Under the pieces are notes generated by a model that made no database searches, was not told where the DNA came from, and worked only from the letters and a program-made list of their open reading frames with translations. A stretch of 64,000 bases of DNA, from contig JBEARB010000253.1 of NCBI GenBank assembly GCA_041163625.1, forward strand, positions 11,034-75,033, in the 5' to 3' direction. The position numbers and the translations under genes are program-made. Source of the stretch: Pseudomonadota bacterium. GTDB lineage: Bacteria; Myxococcota_A; UBA9042. Below are positions 25,317 through 35,550 of this stretch, piece after piece (position 1 is the stretch's first letter; each line of letters starts with the position of its first letter).

Positions 25317-28300
25317 ATGGCAGTCCTCGAGCGCATTCGCACCCTGTTCGGCACCATGCCACGCGGCCTCGGAGCCCTGGCGCTGGTGACCGCGATCGGC
25401 CTGTCGGCCTGTGCAGGCGAGTCCGGGAGCGACGCTGCAAGCGACGGCACCTGTGAGCCCGGCACGAAGGATTGCCTCTGCGCGACGGGCGCGGCGTGCG
25501 GCCCGGGCTTGTCCTGCGTCTCGGGGTCGTGCAAGGCCGGCGAGCAGGGTGCCCTGGGCATGGCCTGCTTCGCCAACATGACCTGCAATCCCGACGAGGA
25601 AGGCCGCGCGATGCTCTGCGTGGGCGGCGTCTGCCAGAAGGCGAGCTGCACGCAGGGCAGCGAGGGTTGCGGCTGTCTCGCCGGCGCGACCTGCGCCGCG
25701 GGGCTGACCTGCGACACCAGCACCGGTGCGGCGCTCTGCCAGAAGGCGGCCTGCGCGGACAACGTCGGCACGCTCGGCTGCGCCTGCGACGCGGACTACG
25801 GCTGCGCGGCGGGCCCGGGCGGTGCGGCGCTGGCGTGTGACGGCAAGCTGTGCATCTCGGCGATCTGCGCGCCGGGCACCGAGAACTGCTTCTGCGGCGA
25901 GAAGGCCACCTGCGCCTCGGGCCTGAACTGCGACGCCGGCACCTTCCGCTGTGTGAAGCCGAGCGGCTGCACCCAGGGCGAGTCGGGCTGTGCCTGCAAG
26001 GGCGACGGCAGCTGCATCGGCGACAAGCTGGTCTGCAACAGCAACGTCTGCGTGGTCGAGAACTGCCCGGCCGGCGAGATCGGCTGCACCTGCAAGGGCG
26101 ACGGCAGCTGCGCCGTCGGCGGCGACGCCCTGCTCGTCTGTCAGTCGGGCAAGTGCCTGCCCAAGGCGGGCTGCGCCGAGGGCACCCCCGGCTGCGCCTG
26201 CACCGCCACCGGCGGCTGCCAGGGTGACGGCTTCATCTGCGACAGCGGCACCAACACCTGCAAGGCGGTCTCCTGTGCCGCCGGCGCGCTGAACTGCGGC
26301 TGCAAGGCCGGCGCCACCTGCGACGCGGGCCTGGTCTGCGCGAACGGTCAGATCTGCGTCGACAACAAGGGCTTCCCCGGCGGTGCCTGCCTCGACGGCG
26401 ATCTCTGCAACGCCGGTGCGAAGTGCGACGGCGGCAAGTGCGCGACCTGCGCGCTCGGCAGCGAGGGCTGCGCCTGCTTCACCGGCGGCGGCTGCTTCGC
26501 CCCGCTGACCTGCCACCTCGGCAGCTGCGTCGCGCCCGGCAACTCGAGCACGACCGTGCCCGCTTCGCTCGACCCGCCGAAGGACGCGCAGTGCTGGACG
26601 CCCTGCAACCAGGGTGTGACCAAGCCCGACGGCACCTTCGTCGCGTGCGGCGCCGACGGCCTACTCCCGGGCTGCGTCGACGACCTGACCTGCGTCAAGG
26701 GCAGCTGCGTGAAGAAGGGCGACACGCCCGGCAAGTGCGAGACCGACCTGGACTGCGCCGAGCACCAGACCTGCTACCTCGCTGACGGCCACTGCTACTC
26801 GAACTGCAACGTCGACATGGACTGCGGCGACGGCGCGAGTTGCTACCGCCACGTCTGCCGCAAGACCTGCGACACCAAGGCGGGCTGCGACAAGGGTCAG
26901 TTCTGCAAGACGATCGACGGAGAGAACGGCTTCTGCATGCCGCTCGCGCCGCCGACCAAGTGCGAGGGTCCGCAGTGCGGTCAGAAGGCCGTCCTCGGTA
27001 GCTTCTCGCTGCAGGAGGACCAACTGAGCCTCTCGGACGCCAACGCGACCGGCCAGATCGTGGTCGACGTCGACAGCGCCTCGGAGACCTCGCTCAAGGT
27101 CCGCAAGGTCCGTCACTCGATGGTCGGCCAGGGCGGCGAAGAGGTGACCTGCGTCGCCGGCAGCAACAACTGCCCCTGCCAGCCCGGTGACGGCAAGGTC
27201 GTGCTCGCCGGTGTCACCTACTACTGCGACACCGCCAAGACCCCGCCGCTGCACTGGCTGAAGATTGGCACCAGCGACAAGCCCCTCGAGAAGGTGCAGT
27301 CGATCGACGTGAAGGTCGGCGCCGGCAAGACCAGCTTCACCCTGCTGCTGAGCACCGAGGGCGCCTCGCCCGCGCCGGCGTGGCAGGGCGTGGTCGAGAT
27401 CAGCCACCCGAACTACGGCGTCGGCGAGGTCTTCCTCTCCTACGCCGTGCGCCCGGACGGCCGCTGGATCGGCACCGCCTACTTCTTCGCCACCTTCGAG
27501 GACGAGGGCTTGGACAAGTGGCTGCTCAACCCGCAGGACTTCAACCTCGTCAAGAACGCGTTCGTGCAGCAGTGGCAGGTCTTCCGCAACCAGCCGATGG
27601 CCAACTACGAGATGATCAACGCGATGATGACCAGCGTCATCGACGAGACCTGGCAGTGGGAGAAGGTCCGCAAGGATTGCAAGAGCTTCGGCGAGAACGC
27701 CGCGTGCATCCCCTACGCCCCGCAGCAGCCCGGCTCGATCGGCGCCACCAGCGGCCTGTACAAGGTCAGCTCGGACTCGCGCACCATCCGGATGCCGAGC
27801 GGCGTCACAGAGCTGCCGCTCTCGTTCAACCTGAAGTCGACCGCCGACCCGACCCTGCTCACCGGCCGCATCACCACGGCCGACAGCTTGCAATACGGCG
27901 GCAACCCGTCGATTGGCGGCATCAAGCTCAAGCAGGATCCCGCCAAGGCCTGCACCGGCGGGCTGTGCGTCATCGGCGTGAGCGACATGAGCATCGACAT
28001 GGCGATCGGTGGTCGCTACGTCTCGAACAGCTCGGACACCACCTGCCAGGACATGCCGGCCGGTGCGTACGGCCACGTCGCGCTGCCGTGGTTGGTGCCG
28101 GGCTTCTTGGTCGGCACCGAGACCGACAACAAGACCAACACCGTCTACCGCTACGAGTGCCGTTCGAAGAAGGTGCCCTTCGGCGACGATCCGGCGCAGA
28201 TGGTCGCGAACATGACCTCGGCGGCCAGCAACCCGATCGCCGACGGCAAGCCGCGCAGCCGCACGCTGACGCTGCTCGACGGCGCGCTCATCAACCAAAC

Positions 28301-34800: not shown

Positions 34801-35550
34801 GGCTGCTCGGACAAGTGCCAGTGCGAGGGTTGGTCCAAGCCGGTGCTCTCGGAGAAGACCGGCACCAACGGCTACAAGTACAAGGTCGGCACCTGCCAGT
34901 GCGCCGACGACGGCTTGGCGCCGAAGATCGACCTGGTCGGTCAGTGTGGCGGCAAGGCCGTGGACCTCGGCACCATCGCGAAGTCGGGTACGGCGACCGT
35001 GGAGTCGATGGGCCGCGTGCGCTTCGGTGAGACCGAAGATTGGTACCGCGTCTACGCGCCGGACAAGAAGCAGGTCCCACTGGGTTCTGGCGGAGTCGAC
35101 ACGTACGACTTCGCCGTGGACTTGTCGCTCGCTTCGACGCCGGACTCGGACAAGTTCGTGGTGGACATCTTCCGCTCGACCGGCGGCACCGACTCGACCT
35201 GCAAGTCGGCGGCGAAGGTCTGCGCGGACGAGCCGGCGAAGCACACGTTCACGTCGCTCAACACCAAGTGCTACCGCGGTGGCAGCGCGCAGACGGCGGG
35301 GTGCGGCAGCGTCGCGAACTGCCAGGGCACGCCGGGCAACAAGTGGAAGACCATCCCTCCGGGAGCCAAGGCGCCGACCGGAGGCTACCAATACGGCATG
35401 GCGGGTCCGTGGCCCTCCGCCGGCTCCACGGCGTTCCTGACGGCCTGCCCGGACTACACGGCGTACTACTTCATCCGCGTGAAGCGTGCGGCCAACACGC
35501 CCACGACGTGTGGTCAGTACAAGCTGAAGATCACCAGCAAGGCCGACTGA
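31843..35550 (+). CDS. Giant (1235 aa) lipoprotein: paralogous N-terminal Cys-rich module array, different central region, C-terminal myxococcus cysteine-rich repeats.
   Basis: AAGGAG RBS before ATG 31843. MNRNHAILLAAMLSALFAFGCGTEE has a lipobox. It is followed by a D/T/S/G linker and then ~13 copies of the same Cys module as the upstream gene. The C-terminal part contains CGDGIIAPFDEVCDDGNTKTNDGCSDKCQ (the myxococcus cysteine-rich-repeat signature). Confidence 0.75.
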   Translation: MNRNHAILLAAMLSALFAFGCGTEEANNNTKTDTAGGGSDSVVADGTVSDGAGQTDTADTSTTVDVADTKVEDVPDSTVEDTPDSTACTAGTEGCECKSDKTCDGDLACKGGTTCVKAADCPAGELGCDCKDGGCAEGDYCKGGKTCVAAADCPAGDEGCACDEKGACGTDLYCKEGKTCAKAEACPNSAAGCPCTAEKGCDGGLYCSAQNGTCATKDTCPKGTAGCPCDTTNPCGADLACGAGGVCSSCPFGTDGCPCKGDSTCDAGYMCQTGACAPDPCYGKEGTVGCGCKDGGCDKDAWCNSGTCQICKADGPGCACNDKAPCGTELTCGSDSTCKPCADNAGAPGCKPKGDGTCGEGNTLNPATGLCETCAPGKLGCECDSNKACAGDYKCKVADNVCVACKEVAGCPCQGKADCGNGYVCDNATQSCGACEAGTAGCDCKGTGVAACVDGYTCNIGVCEACKPGKLGCPLACNVEFPAPVKIIGKTTCSSCPGNCMGVGETGVAVTGQTQNGSCICETKEGYFYEATTGKAEPCDGDGDGWIRQTALDAMRSNDPVIKANARCGSVMREMDYVALVTEAGIALPVPVTSVLDAATFKQGTLNQDGKGGLVMTEPLLFDSESLLASQVSSGGFPNLAGGRPPHAAELNPLTKSCVSASADFNGNNIADVEEWSGHGKAKLDPMSQIAIKFSYWIELHRGWWADVPVPVSLPAGATPVDTTNAPKEGVYFIAEKQRALNAAAPTQTTLMEPTTTSQGYWRQCKRMVAKDYKTAVDNGSTTIGFDFAEWSSYTQAFGEGMTHHSQFHCAVIAANDAVLTESEKQFKIRASELENKWVVNDCKYGANSHTPLPTDATQITMTVEGKEIRNPADPVSSGCSVATPSTGATYWLVSRYQAYLSKDGYNRGCVNECIDQVVETCPYVLDDPYAKYACVGDPANSGQAQCTCNNGYYGTPQTKCESKCGDGIIAPFDEVCDDGNTKTNDGCSDKCQCEGWSKPVLSEKTGTNGYKYKVGTCQCADDGLAPKIDLVGQCGGKAVDLGTIAKSGTATVESMGRVRFGETEDWYRVYAPDKKQVPLGSGGVDTYDFAVDLSLASTPDSDKFVVDIFRSTGGTDSTCKSAAKVCADEPAKHTFTSLNTKCYRGGSAQTAGCGSVANCQGTPGNKWKTIPPGAKAPTGGYQYGMAGPWPSAGSTAFLTACPDYTAYYFIRVKRAANTPTTCGQYKLKITSKAD

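Follow-up and report, generated by a model that had tools for sequence, protein, structure and literature searches.

Two adjacent genes, here called p1 and p2, were identified in a 64-kb window of DNA (the whole stretch that was analysed) and encode giant lipoproteins. In our assessment, p1 is a lipoprotein-anchored variant of the Tc toxin A component that sequence comparison does not detect, and p2 is a new partner subunit. We estimate a probability of about 70% that myxobacteria have their own version of the Tc (ABC) toxin complex and that this pair is its conserved delivery (A-side) module.

Gene pair and lipoprotein signals

Based on ORF calls and translation, p1 (25317..31763) and p2 (31843..35550) are co-directional genes on the + strand that encode proteins of 2148 aa and 1235 aa, respectively. 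p1 was assigned as a remote TcA-like (A-component) homologue from its ORF, its full-length relatives and an AF2 model searched with Foldseek, and p2 was recognised as its partner lipoprotein from the ORF, the translation and its co-occurrence with p1. Both reading frames are backed by codon-position GC (GC3 of 0.93–0.94), and the products are identical to the NCBI entries MEY3014396.1 (p1) and MEY3014397.1 (p2), each labelled 'hypothetical protein'. Downstream of the 3' end of p2 there is a doubtful ORF (35985–37145) without a Pfam match, along with a convergent acyltransferase gene.

Lipoboxes were called by inspection of the sequence rather than with a dedicated predictor, and by these calls both proteins are bacterial lipoproteins (Sec/SPII), with a signal peptide ending in a predicted lipobox cysteine. 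The N-terminus of p1, MAVLERIRTLFGTMPRGLGALALVTAIGLSAC, has its lipobox cysteine at residue 32 (…IGLSA-C32; 25317..25412, + strand) with Ala as residue +2. The N-terminus of p2, MNRNHAILLAAMLSALFAFGC, has the cysteine at residue 21 (…FAFG-C21), which is followed by a 66-aa acidic T/S/D/G linker at residues 22–87 (signal peptide, lipobox and linker together 31843..32103, + strand). Lipoprotein signals are present in almost all homologues of p1 and of p2, and the related clusters also encode a third, small lipoprotein with a single copy of the cysteine module described below.

Cysteine-module arrays

Both proteins carry tandem copies of a module of ~31 aa with six cysteines, C-x6-C-x-C-x5-C-x5-C-x4-6-C. 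The module HMM located nine canonical and two degenerate copies in p1 (residues 46–412; 25452..26552, + strand), and eleven canonical and two degenerate copies in p2 (residues 88–477, with HMM matches over 88–474; 32104..33273, + strand). A preliminary description of this DNA had reported two adjacent giant lipoproteins with a common cysteine-module array, and the ORFs, the lipoboxes and the module HMM bear this out; its figure of 12–13 copies each is right for p2, with 13, but too high for p1, with 11. Module copies are 39% identical within each protein and 37% identical between p1 and p2, values that speak for one module family with no recent conversion. The module was found nowhere else in the window.

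The array had also been described as belonging to no named family, and this was upheld: the module matches no curated EGF, EB or VWC-type profile at the sequence level. Some p1 homologues are named 'EB domain-containing protein' by NCBI, and one has a precomputed PF21164 match. The small disulfide modules of the EB and Dumpy DPY type are similar in being short (~30 aa), multi-cysteine, tandem and extracellular, but differ from the arrays of the window, in which a Pfam scan found nothing at E<0.01 (at E≤10 just a weak DUF7107 match, outside the module region) and whose module profile matched nothing in the PDB (best E 0.35). Among homologues the N-terminal arrays vary between 0 and 17 CxC modules, and the stalk lengths of p1 and p2 correlate over 49 loci (Spearman 0.70, Pearson 0.77), in a statistic that ignores phylogeny. 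The 370-aa array of p1 probably forms a disulfide-rich stalk.

Myxococcus TraA and the SitA lipoprotein toxins sit in the outer membrane or at the cell surface, attached through lipid or envelope anchors. TraA bears its functional head, used in cell-cell contact and toxin transfer, on a stalk of cysteine-rich repeats, an arrangement that resembles p1 and p2 by description; its MYXO-CTERM anchor and PA14 head are unlike them. SitA toxins are small and are delivered by outer-membrane exchange rather than through a TcA-like channel.

Domains and predicted fold of the p1 core

After the array, p1 continues into a conserved cysteine-rich neck (~residues 426–555; 26592..26981, + strand), defined by the family consensus CYTPC…DGL..GC…GSCV / C..D.DCPDFQ.C…RHVCR.PC. 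In contrast to the modules, the neck is kept in nearly all family members; its sole Pfam match is a weak one to DUF7107 (E 0.009). The mixed beta/alpha core that follows (residues 560–1292; 26994..29192, + strand) is conserved family-wide in the alignment. We modelled residues 949–2148 with AF2 from a 54-sequence alignment (pLDDT 78.6, pTM 0.66), so that the last part of this core (949–1292) is covered. The model continues with a helical region (residues 1293–1665; 29193..30311, + strand), whose helices H345–H680 have a pLDDT of mostly 80–95 and lie inside the stretch that Foldseek aligns to TcA. Next comes a long helical hairpin (residues 1666–1882; 30312..30962, + strand), delimited by the model and by hydropathy, with two helices of 88 and 116 aa (model H718–805 and H819–934) and a low-confidence connecting loop. 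Its tip (~residues 1729–1789) has a mean Kyte-Doolittle value of +0.47 versus about −0.4 in the arms over 54 sequences, is the most hydrophobic segment in 54/54 family members, and is, as modelled, a candidate membrane-inserting channel element. The modelled C-terminal beta domain (residues 1965–2148, 185 aa, pLDDT ~90; 31209..31760, + strand) is a candidate docking domain for a TcB-TcC cocoon. The preliminary description had the two proteins diverge wholly after their arrays, with a coiled coil of ~550 aa in p1. Beyond the arrays p1 and p2 are indeed unrelated to each other, but the supposed coiled coil is a helical region of ~670 aa that forms no simple coiled coil in the model.

Foldseek comparison of the p1 model with the PDB returned TcA chains at all of ranks 1–23 (E 1e-10 to 1e-3), namely TcdA1, XptA1, XptA2, YenTcA, TcdA4 and TcaA-TcaB. 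For ranks 1–21 the E-values lie between 1e-10 and 2e-8 at a probability of 1.00, with 830–1360 aligned columns, mostly 850–1000. Rank 23 is 6l7i_A (E 1e-3, TMt 0.53), an entry listed as a part of TcdA1 with TcdB1-TccC2, and this match includes the non-helical C-terminal domain. The best non-TcA match had an E-value of 6e-3 and a probability of 0.20. Global TM-scores of the model to TcA are low (~0.2), which makes the TcA match a local one (3Di) and not a rigid superposition, and long helices align easily. At the level of the model, the comparison shows that the C-terminal ~850–1000 residues of p1 share the TcA fold, i.e., a helical domain, a ~200-residue hairpin and a terminal beta domain.

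By sequence, p1 falls outside the curated TcA and neuraminidase-like families. Apart from the neck, there was no Pfam or NCBIfam match in p1, no homologue has a precomputed TcA-type Pfam match, and comparison with the PDB by sequence and by profile gave nothing except coiled-coil noise. With hhalign the p1 family reached a probability of 1.8% with SepA and of 6% with a TcA profile of nine members; the sole match to canonical TcA, at just that 6%, joins both extreme C-termini colinearly, with the motif L.sLtDIRLYiYYTD aligned to L.sLSDIILHIRYT.

The failure of sequence-based comparison with TcA and the global TM-scores of just ~0.2 would fit p1 and p2 being structural or adhesive envelope proteins, i.e., lipoproteins with a stalk and a coiled coil that make contact with other cells or with a substrate and whose TcA likeness is a by-product of long helices; cysteine-rich stalks and lipid anchors are, in addition, typical of myxobacterial surface proteins. 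We consider this very unlikely, given that the top 23 structural matches are TcA chains only, that the match takes in the non-helical C-terminal domain, and that the independent linkage to TcB-TcC genes presented below is unexpected for an adhesin.

Family distribution and linkage to TcB-TcC genes

Full-length relatives of the p1 core occur in 248 species-representative genomes, all of Myxococcota or Bradymonadia, and the p1-type family comprises 519 clusters at 50% identity. Across the 248 genomes the C-terminal 1589 aa of p1 are conserved end to end, with 32–45% identity. The p2 core was found beside the p1 core in 69/83 loci, nearly always directly downstream and on the same strand. Linkage to TcB-TcC was counted over the 35 loci flanked by 9 kb or more on each side, and at 23 of these a co-directional TcB-TcC fusion of 2000–2400 aa is tightly packed against the p1/p2 pair in an operon-like cluster. 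Every fusion copy scanned contains SpvB, FG-GAP, TcdB_toxin_midN and RHS; the fusions bear Sec signal peptides, and in many the RHS-core motif …DPxGL precedes a variable terminal tail of 158–230 aa. Judged from the sequences, the polymorphic parts of the wider system are this TcB-TcC C-terminal tail and, less markedly, the extension at the far C-terminus of p2.

A TcB-TcC (BC) gene is missing from 12 of the 35 well-flanked loci. None was detected by tblastn (E≤1e-5) in the 64-kb window, or within 10 kb of the locus in a 91%-identical relative, L003. On another reading, p1 acts alone, as a pore-forming toxin or a lipoprotein that perforates membranes, and needs no BC cocoon, p2 is its receptor-binding partner, and the pair is cargo-free here. 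These absences would agree with this, and the hydrophobic hairpin tip would fit pore formation alone; canonical TcA by itself forms pores. We regard this as unlikely. The C-terminal beta domain is among the best-conserved parts of the family, and 79% of the positions that BC-linked homologues conserve are retained in the window copy, a conservation and retention that are hard to explain without a docking partner. Furthermore, where a genome has several p1 loci, BC is often present at one and absent from another, e.g., L011/L059 and L017/L077. The p1 loci without BC mirror the orphan tc genes known in Photorhabdus (PMC7861908).

Core and tail of p2

The conserved core of p2 (residues 487–950; 33301..34692, + strand) comprises 460 aa with invariant motifs including CDxDGDGW and GMxHHSQFKC. 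It has no recognisable solved relative, and p2 shows no TcA similarity. At residues 947–993 (34681..34821, + strand) there is one DUF4215 (myxococcus cysteine-rich) repeat (Pfam PF13948; E 4.1e-9, 37 bits where the cut-off is 27); the preliminary description had given such repeats in the plural, next to a globular region different from that of p1. The remainder is a variable C-terminal tail (residues 1000–1235; 34840..35547, + strand), defined by tblastn and pairwise comparison and modelled with a pLDDT below 50. By tblastn it was found in two sources only, the window itself and L003. Tails in the p2 family measure 25–610 aa and are similar in just 124/861 pairs, as against 1128/1128 pairs for the cores.

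The tail that differs among loci and the module array common to p1 and p2 would suit the proposal of the preliminary description, in which the two proteins belong to one polymorphic toxin or surface-effector family with a common presentation scaffold and interchangeable C-terminal effectors. This we consider highly improbable. Each C-terminal region is an orthologous family conserved phylum-wide, it is the arrays and not the C-termini that vary, and Pfam and NCBIfam detected no toxin domain in p1 or p2. A polymorphic-toxin layout was rejected on the conservation of the C-terminal 1589 aa of p1 and of the p2 core, just the far tail of p2 being variable. What remains of the proposal is that the pair looks like toxin-delivery hardware. 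Rather than paralogues with swapped ends, p1 and p2 are two different co-inherited subunits, and no exchanged combinations turned up. No match to an ordinary hydrolase was obtained for either C-terminal region; such matches had been named as counting against the proposal.

Comparison with known toxin systems

The closest known proteins are the TcA subunits (Photorhabdus TcdA1, Xenorhabdus XptA1/XptA2, Yersinia YenA1/A2 and TcaA-TcaB, Serratia SepA), which resemble p1 in the modelled fold of its C-terminal ~850–1000 residues and, at the level of the p1 family rather than the window, in being linked in the genome to a TcB/TcC cocoon whose toxin end varies. In contrast to them, p1 has no detectable sequence homology, starts with a lipoprotein signal, carries a 370-aa stalk of cysteine modules, and is accompanied by the second lipoprotein p2. 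Its TcA-like core of ~1590 aa is also ~900 aa shorter than canonical TcA (~2400–2500 aa), a protein that lacks a signal peptide and depends on lysis for its release (PMC10847048). The BC proteins at p1-type loci differ from those of Tc systems in their Sec signals and in that B and C are fused in every p1-linked copy examined.

A further YD/RHS-shell toxin system, the bacterial teneurin-like proteins (TLPs), is enriched in Myxococcota, with predicted Sec/SPII lipoprotein anchoring, surface display and a polymorphic C-terminal toxin (Raoelijaona et al. 2026, PMC13018210). The YD/RHS shell, the lipoprotein anchoring and the polymorphic C-terminal toxin are features that TLPs share with the p1/p2 system. 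However, TLPs are single proteins (FN-plug, NHL and YD-shell with a TIP domain) without a TcA-like channel partner (PMC13018210), whereas the p1-linked shell is TcB-type (SpvB, FG-GAP and TcdB_toxin_midN) and it is separate A-like proteins, p1 and p2, that are lipoproteins.

Proposed mechanism and significance

From these features we infer a mechanism of tethered delivery. p1 and p2 would be exported by Sec, lipidated and held on a membrane by the N-terminal lipid; an outer-membrane location is predicted because residue +2 is not Lys. The disulfide-rich arrays would project both proteins away from the membrane, and p1 would oligomerise in the manner of TcA, which is a pentamer. Its C-terminal domain would dock a Sec-exported TcB-TcC cocoon, whose gene in the window organism would have to sit outside the 64-kb window. 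Upon contact with a target cell, the hairpin bundle would insert in the target membrane and the toxin would be threaded through. p2, with its conserved core and variable C-terminal extension, may be an accessory subunit that helps in targeting, gating or assembly. More tentatively, and as a possibility that we would put at somewhat below even odds, Myxobacteria and Bradymonadia may use a membrane-tethered, contact-dependent (or vesicle-borne) Tc machine to inject polymorphic toxins into prey or rivals, with a lipid-anchored channel on a stalk, p2 on a length-matched stalk giving variable target recognition, and the Sec-exported cocoon as the load.

Tc toxins attract study both as insecticides and as programmable devices for injecting proteins. 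To our knowledge, all A subunits characterised so far are giant soluble pentamers that lack a signal peptide and are freed by cell lysis. A phylum-wide A-like protein that is Sec-exported, lipid-anchored, set on a variable stalk and paired with a second subunit would widen the concept of the Tc machine, and tethered Tc injection, if true, would be a way of delivery that no Tc toxin is known to use. p1 would then be the missing A component for the BC-type cocoon genes of the phylum and would explain the docking partner of the myxobacterial TcB-TcC fusions. Two large families now listed publicly only as 'hypothetical protein' would gain names, and the shorter core with a separate targeting subunit could interest engineers of Tc toxins. 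Taken as a very distant, previously unannotated TcA relative on a cysteine-rich stalk, p1 points to a membrane-tethered Tc machine in myxobacteria, and together with p2 it may serve these social bacteria in predation or kin conflict.

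Two adjacent lipoproteins with a shared cysteine-module array

The genes p1 (25317-31763, 2148 aa) and p2 (31843-35550, 1235 aa) are neighboring, co-directional ORFs with lipoprotein-type signals at their N-termini (MAVLERIRTLFGTMPRGLGALALVTAIGLSAC in p1 and MNRNHAILLAAMLSALFAFGC in p2), and in a window of ~70% G+C their GC3 of 0.93-0.94 shows the pronounced preference for G+C at third positions that is typical of genuine genes. In public records they are MEY3014396.1 (p1) and MEY3014397.1 (p2), both annotated as "hypothetical protein". Tandem copies of a ~31-residue module with six cysteines, C-x6-C-x-C-x5-C-x5-C-x4-6-C, open both mature proteins, in p2 after an acidic T/S/D/G linker of 66 residues. 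When copies were counted with a module HMM built from the arrays, nine strong and two degenerate copies were detected in p1 (residues 46-412) and 11 strong and two degenerate copies in p2 (residues 88-474). ORFs, signals and HMM thus confirm the twin lipoproteins with a common array reported in the preliminary description; its count of 12-13 copies in each needs a small correction. Modules share 39% identity inside each protein and 37% between p1 and p2, and no copy occurs elsewhere in the window. As had been suspected, the array belongs to no named family: Pfam run on the arrays alone (E<=10) gave no model matching the module, and the module profile retrieved nothing from the PDB (best E 0.35).

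A promoter and terminator scan of 24.7-36.3 kb gave no signal above chance. Between 26000 and 36000, which spans p1 and p2, G+C is 0.64-0.71 compared with 0.71-0.73 in the flanks, and the AT skew is strongly positive (+0.12 to +0.23); amino-acid composition or a different history may account for this.

Several other features of the window were recorded. A Cys-rich stop-to-stop ORF at 17393-18529, with CDDGNxCT repeats flanking a non-repeat middle, matches Pfam Dicty_CTDC (E 1.7e-14); its 5' end lacks a nearby start codon, which may mean that the gene starts in a different frame or has been disrupted. The 1451-aa ORF at 18547-22902 has several long hydrophobic stretches by eye and no Pfam match, and among the fetched loci none but the window and L003, a 91%-identical relative, contains it. 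The divergent gene at 23332-24966 (-) encodes long, extremely acidic E/V/A/L-rich repeats and an Ala/Glu-rich C-terminus, again with no Pfam match. Two adjacent MacB_PCD + FtsX permease genes (LolC/LolE-like; 48551-51184) lie 13 kb downstream of p1/p2, and a comparable ABC-type operon neighbors the Vulgatibacter locus (L001); their proximity is probably coincidental. At the right end (56000-64000), which is possibly an island, G+C falls to 0.60-0.66, and a Fic/DOC family gene is located at 58053-59318.

The predicted fold of p1 resembles TcA

Pfam and NCBIfam gave no match over the whole of p1, and PDB searches (phmmer and profile) with p1 and its family returned coiled-coil noise only. An AlphaFold2 model of residues 949-2148, based on a 54-sequence alignment (mean pLDDT 78.6, pTM 0.66), contains three elements: a helical domain, a hairpin whose two helices (88 and 116 residues) are connected by a loop of low confidence, and a confidently modelled C-terminal beta domain of 185 residues. 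The ~550-aa coiled coil described earlier is in the model a helical region of ~670 residues. Foldseek comparison of the model with the PDB placed exclusively TcA subunits of Tc toxins at ranks 1-23, namely TcdA1, XptA1, XptA2, YenTcA, TcdA4 and TcaA-TcaB. Ranks 1-21 had E-values of 1e-10 to 2e-8 and a probability of 1.00 over 830-1360 aligned columns at ~10% identity, and rank 23, an entry annotated as a portion of TcdA1 with TcdB1-TccC2, had a TMt of 0.53; the top non-TcA match reached only E 6e-3 and probability 0.20. Between the model and TcA, global TM-scores were low (~0.2), as can be expected when long helices are oriented differently, and the match is therefore a local one. At the level of the model, the fold of p1 is TcA-like.

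The hairpin tip is the most hydrophobic stretch across the p1 family, with a mean Kyte-Doolittle value of +0.47 versus about -0.4 in the arms; TcA likewise has a hydrophobic, membrane-inserting tip. In most p1 homologues a conserved Cys-x6-9-Cys pair lies within this stretch. In the window copy (30501-30683, p1 residues 1729-1789) and its close relatives both cysteines are absent and the tip is less hydrophobic (…DVTIGLSTNAPGKALQFAAIQGAKIA…).

Sequence comparison of the p1 family by hhalign was not significant, either against SepA (probability 1.8%) or against a canonical TcA profile of nine C-terminal regions taken from plasmid records (probability 6%, E 0.006). The sole, non-significant match to the profile pairs the extreme C-termini colinearly (L.sLtDIRLYiYYTD with L.sLSDIILHIRYT). 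The homology of p1 to TcA consequently rests on structure and synteny. At family level p1 agrees with TcA in fold and genomic context; however, it falls outside TcA by sequence and carries a signal peptide, whereas TcA is a soluble form without one, and we therefore file it as a variant that probably works like TcA, outside the curated TcA family.

p1 and p2 are co-inherited, with putative length-matched stalks

Beyond its array, p1 has 1589 residues whose full-length relatives, every one unannotated, share 32-45% identity. When one genome per species was scanned, p1 relatives appeared in 248 genomes, with carriers including Anaeromyxobacter terrae SG22 (L007), Archangium, Vulgatibacter and Sandaracinus; among the 80 genomes listed, every named organism belonged to Myxococcota or Bradymonadia. 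Exhaustive phmmer searching with p1 residues 1290-2148 recovered 519 cluster representatives (260 at E<=1e-30). The p2 core (residues 487-950) adjoins the p1 gene in 69 of 83 loci. In nearly all of these it follows p1 immediately on the same strand, and the loci without it are mostly at contig ends. Almost every p1 or p2 homologue has a lipoprotein signal.

Homologues contain between 0 and 17 CxC modules. Across 49 loci including the window, the distances from lipidated Cys to core in p1 and p2 are correlated (Spearman 0.70, Pearson 0.77, uncorrected for phylogeny), as is stalk Cys content within a locus. Stalk lengths in p1/p2 run from 140/51 aa in one related locus (L080) through 528/466 aa in the window (p1 25413-26993; p2 31906-33300) to 730/926 aa in another (L023), and the arrays thus behave like length-matched stalks. 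What is conserved in these proteins is the C-terminal families, and the variable part is the arrays. The preliminary description had read the pair as a polymorphic toxin or surface-effector family, in which a conserved scaffold presents variable C-termini; toxin hardware is borne out, but the logic is inverted. Nor are p1 and p2 paralogues with swapped ends: core conservation, adjacency and stalk covariation argue for different subunits of one unit.

For the whole of p2, Pfam and NCBIfam found DUF4215 alone, and PDB searches (phmmer and profile) with p2 and its core gave coiled-coil noise or nothing. The core is conserved, all 1128 of 1128 pairs from 48 loci being mutually detectable, with invariant motifs including CDxDGDGW and GMxHHSQFKC. 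In the AlphaFold2 model of p2, pLDDT is 70-95 over most of the core and poor in the tail. Extensions after the core measure 25-610 aa and only 14% of pairs are alike; that of the window p2 contains one DUF4215 repeat and a 240-aa domain shared only with L003. A stalked protein with a conserved core and a variable distal end fits a targeting or accessory subunit. A further idea, that the pair makes up a split, TcaA/TcaB-type TcA, was rejected because the gene order is reversed and p2 has a lipoprotein signal of its own and no TcA similarity.

TcB-TcC fusions beside p1/p2 in related loci

In the related locus L002, a 2030-aa protein with SpvB, FG-GAP, TcdB_toxin_midN and RHS domains is encoded upstream of the p1 homologue, a domain content that makes it a TcB-TcC fusion (BC fusion). 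With this protein as tblastn query, full-length co-directional homologues were found in 36-37 of 82 related loci. Where at least 9 kb were available on both sides, 23 of 35 loci contained a BC fusion (17 upstream, 6 downstream) and 12 did not; p1 and p2 are co-inherited, and BC fusions lie alongside them in most of the related loci so flanked. Gene packing is operon-like, typically in the order BC, small gene, p1, p2 or p1, p2, (small gene), BC. Four further fusions had an identical Pfam architecture and different ends (Peptidase_M91-like domain, PT-HINT). Many end with the RHS-core motif Y.Y..N.....DPxGL and, after it, a variable tail of 158-230 aa, the same arrangement as in the hypervariable toxin of TcC. 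BC fusions in related loci (L002-L073) start with Sec-type signal peptides (e.g. …ARA|QTGVSDDRVSLPDGPGS); canonical TcB proteins are not known to have one.

In the window, tblastn found no BC homologue, and L003 has none within 10 kb. Several genomes with more than one p1 locus have a BC fusion at one and lack it at another (e.g. L011/L059 and L017/L077). Of the C-terminal-domain positions that are conserved among BC-linked homologues, the window p1 retains 79%.

The small gene between BC fusion and p1/p2 (~120-165 aa, about 26 loci) itself encodes a lipoprotein, with a ~100-aa conserved domain that has no Pfam match. Among four copies read, a single p1/p2-type six-Cys module precedes this domain in three (L002:9493-9957, L017:8275-8772 and L067:8451-8909) and is absent from L041:16926-17285; no counterpart was found in the window. 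An immunity protein was rejected for this ~155-aa gene, which is conserved across loci with different toxin ends and is itself a Cys-module lipoprotein. A ~400-aa gene follows p2 toward the BC fusion in two loci (L006:16532-17737; L007:17103-18287, the latter with an additional 1139-aa ORF after it); its product has a helix-turn-helix-like segment at the N-terminus and a TM segment, and its C-terminal region (…LPDLGGRFLRG…) by eye resembles phage tail-collar proteins.

A putative lipoprotein-anchored Tc-like system

Our search of the full-text literature turned up no account of a TcA-like protein that is myxobacterial or a lipoprotein, or of such a system, and a term search of Song et al. 2021 (PMC7861908), who surveyed a large number of Tc loci, gave no mention of myxobacteria. 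Teneurin-like proteins of Myxococcota, recently described as lipoprotein-anchored YD-shell toxins, are anchored likewise; in contrast to p1/p2, each of them is one protein with a different architecture, and they lack a channel partner (PMC13018210).

Taken with a probability of roughly 0.7, p1/p2 constitute the A-side module of a Tc-like system, comprising a lipoprotein-anchored TcA-like translocator and a new partner subunit. For tethered, contact-dependent delivery our confidence is considerably lower. In such a mechanism, the lipid anchor would keep p1 and p2 on the outer membrane, since at position +2 p1 has Ala and p2 has Gly rather than Lys; published Myxococcus work provides the rule of lipoprotein sorting by a Lys at +2. 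The disulfide-rich stalks would push both proteins outward, p1 may assemble into a TcA-like oligomeric channel whose C-terminal domain docks the exported BC cocoon, and p2 could help in targeting, gating or assembly. The toxin would then go into the contacted cell by injection, or be delivered via vesicles.
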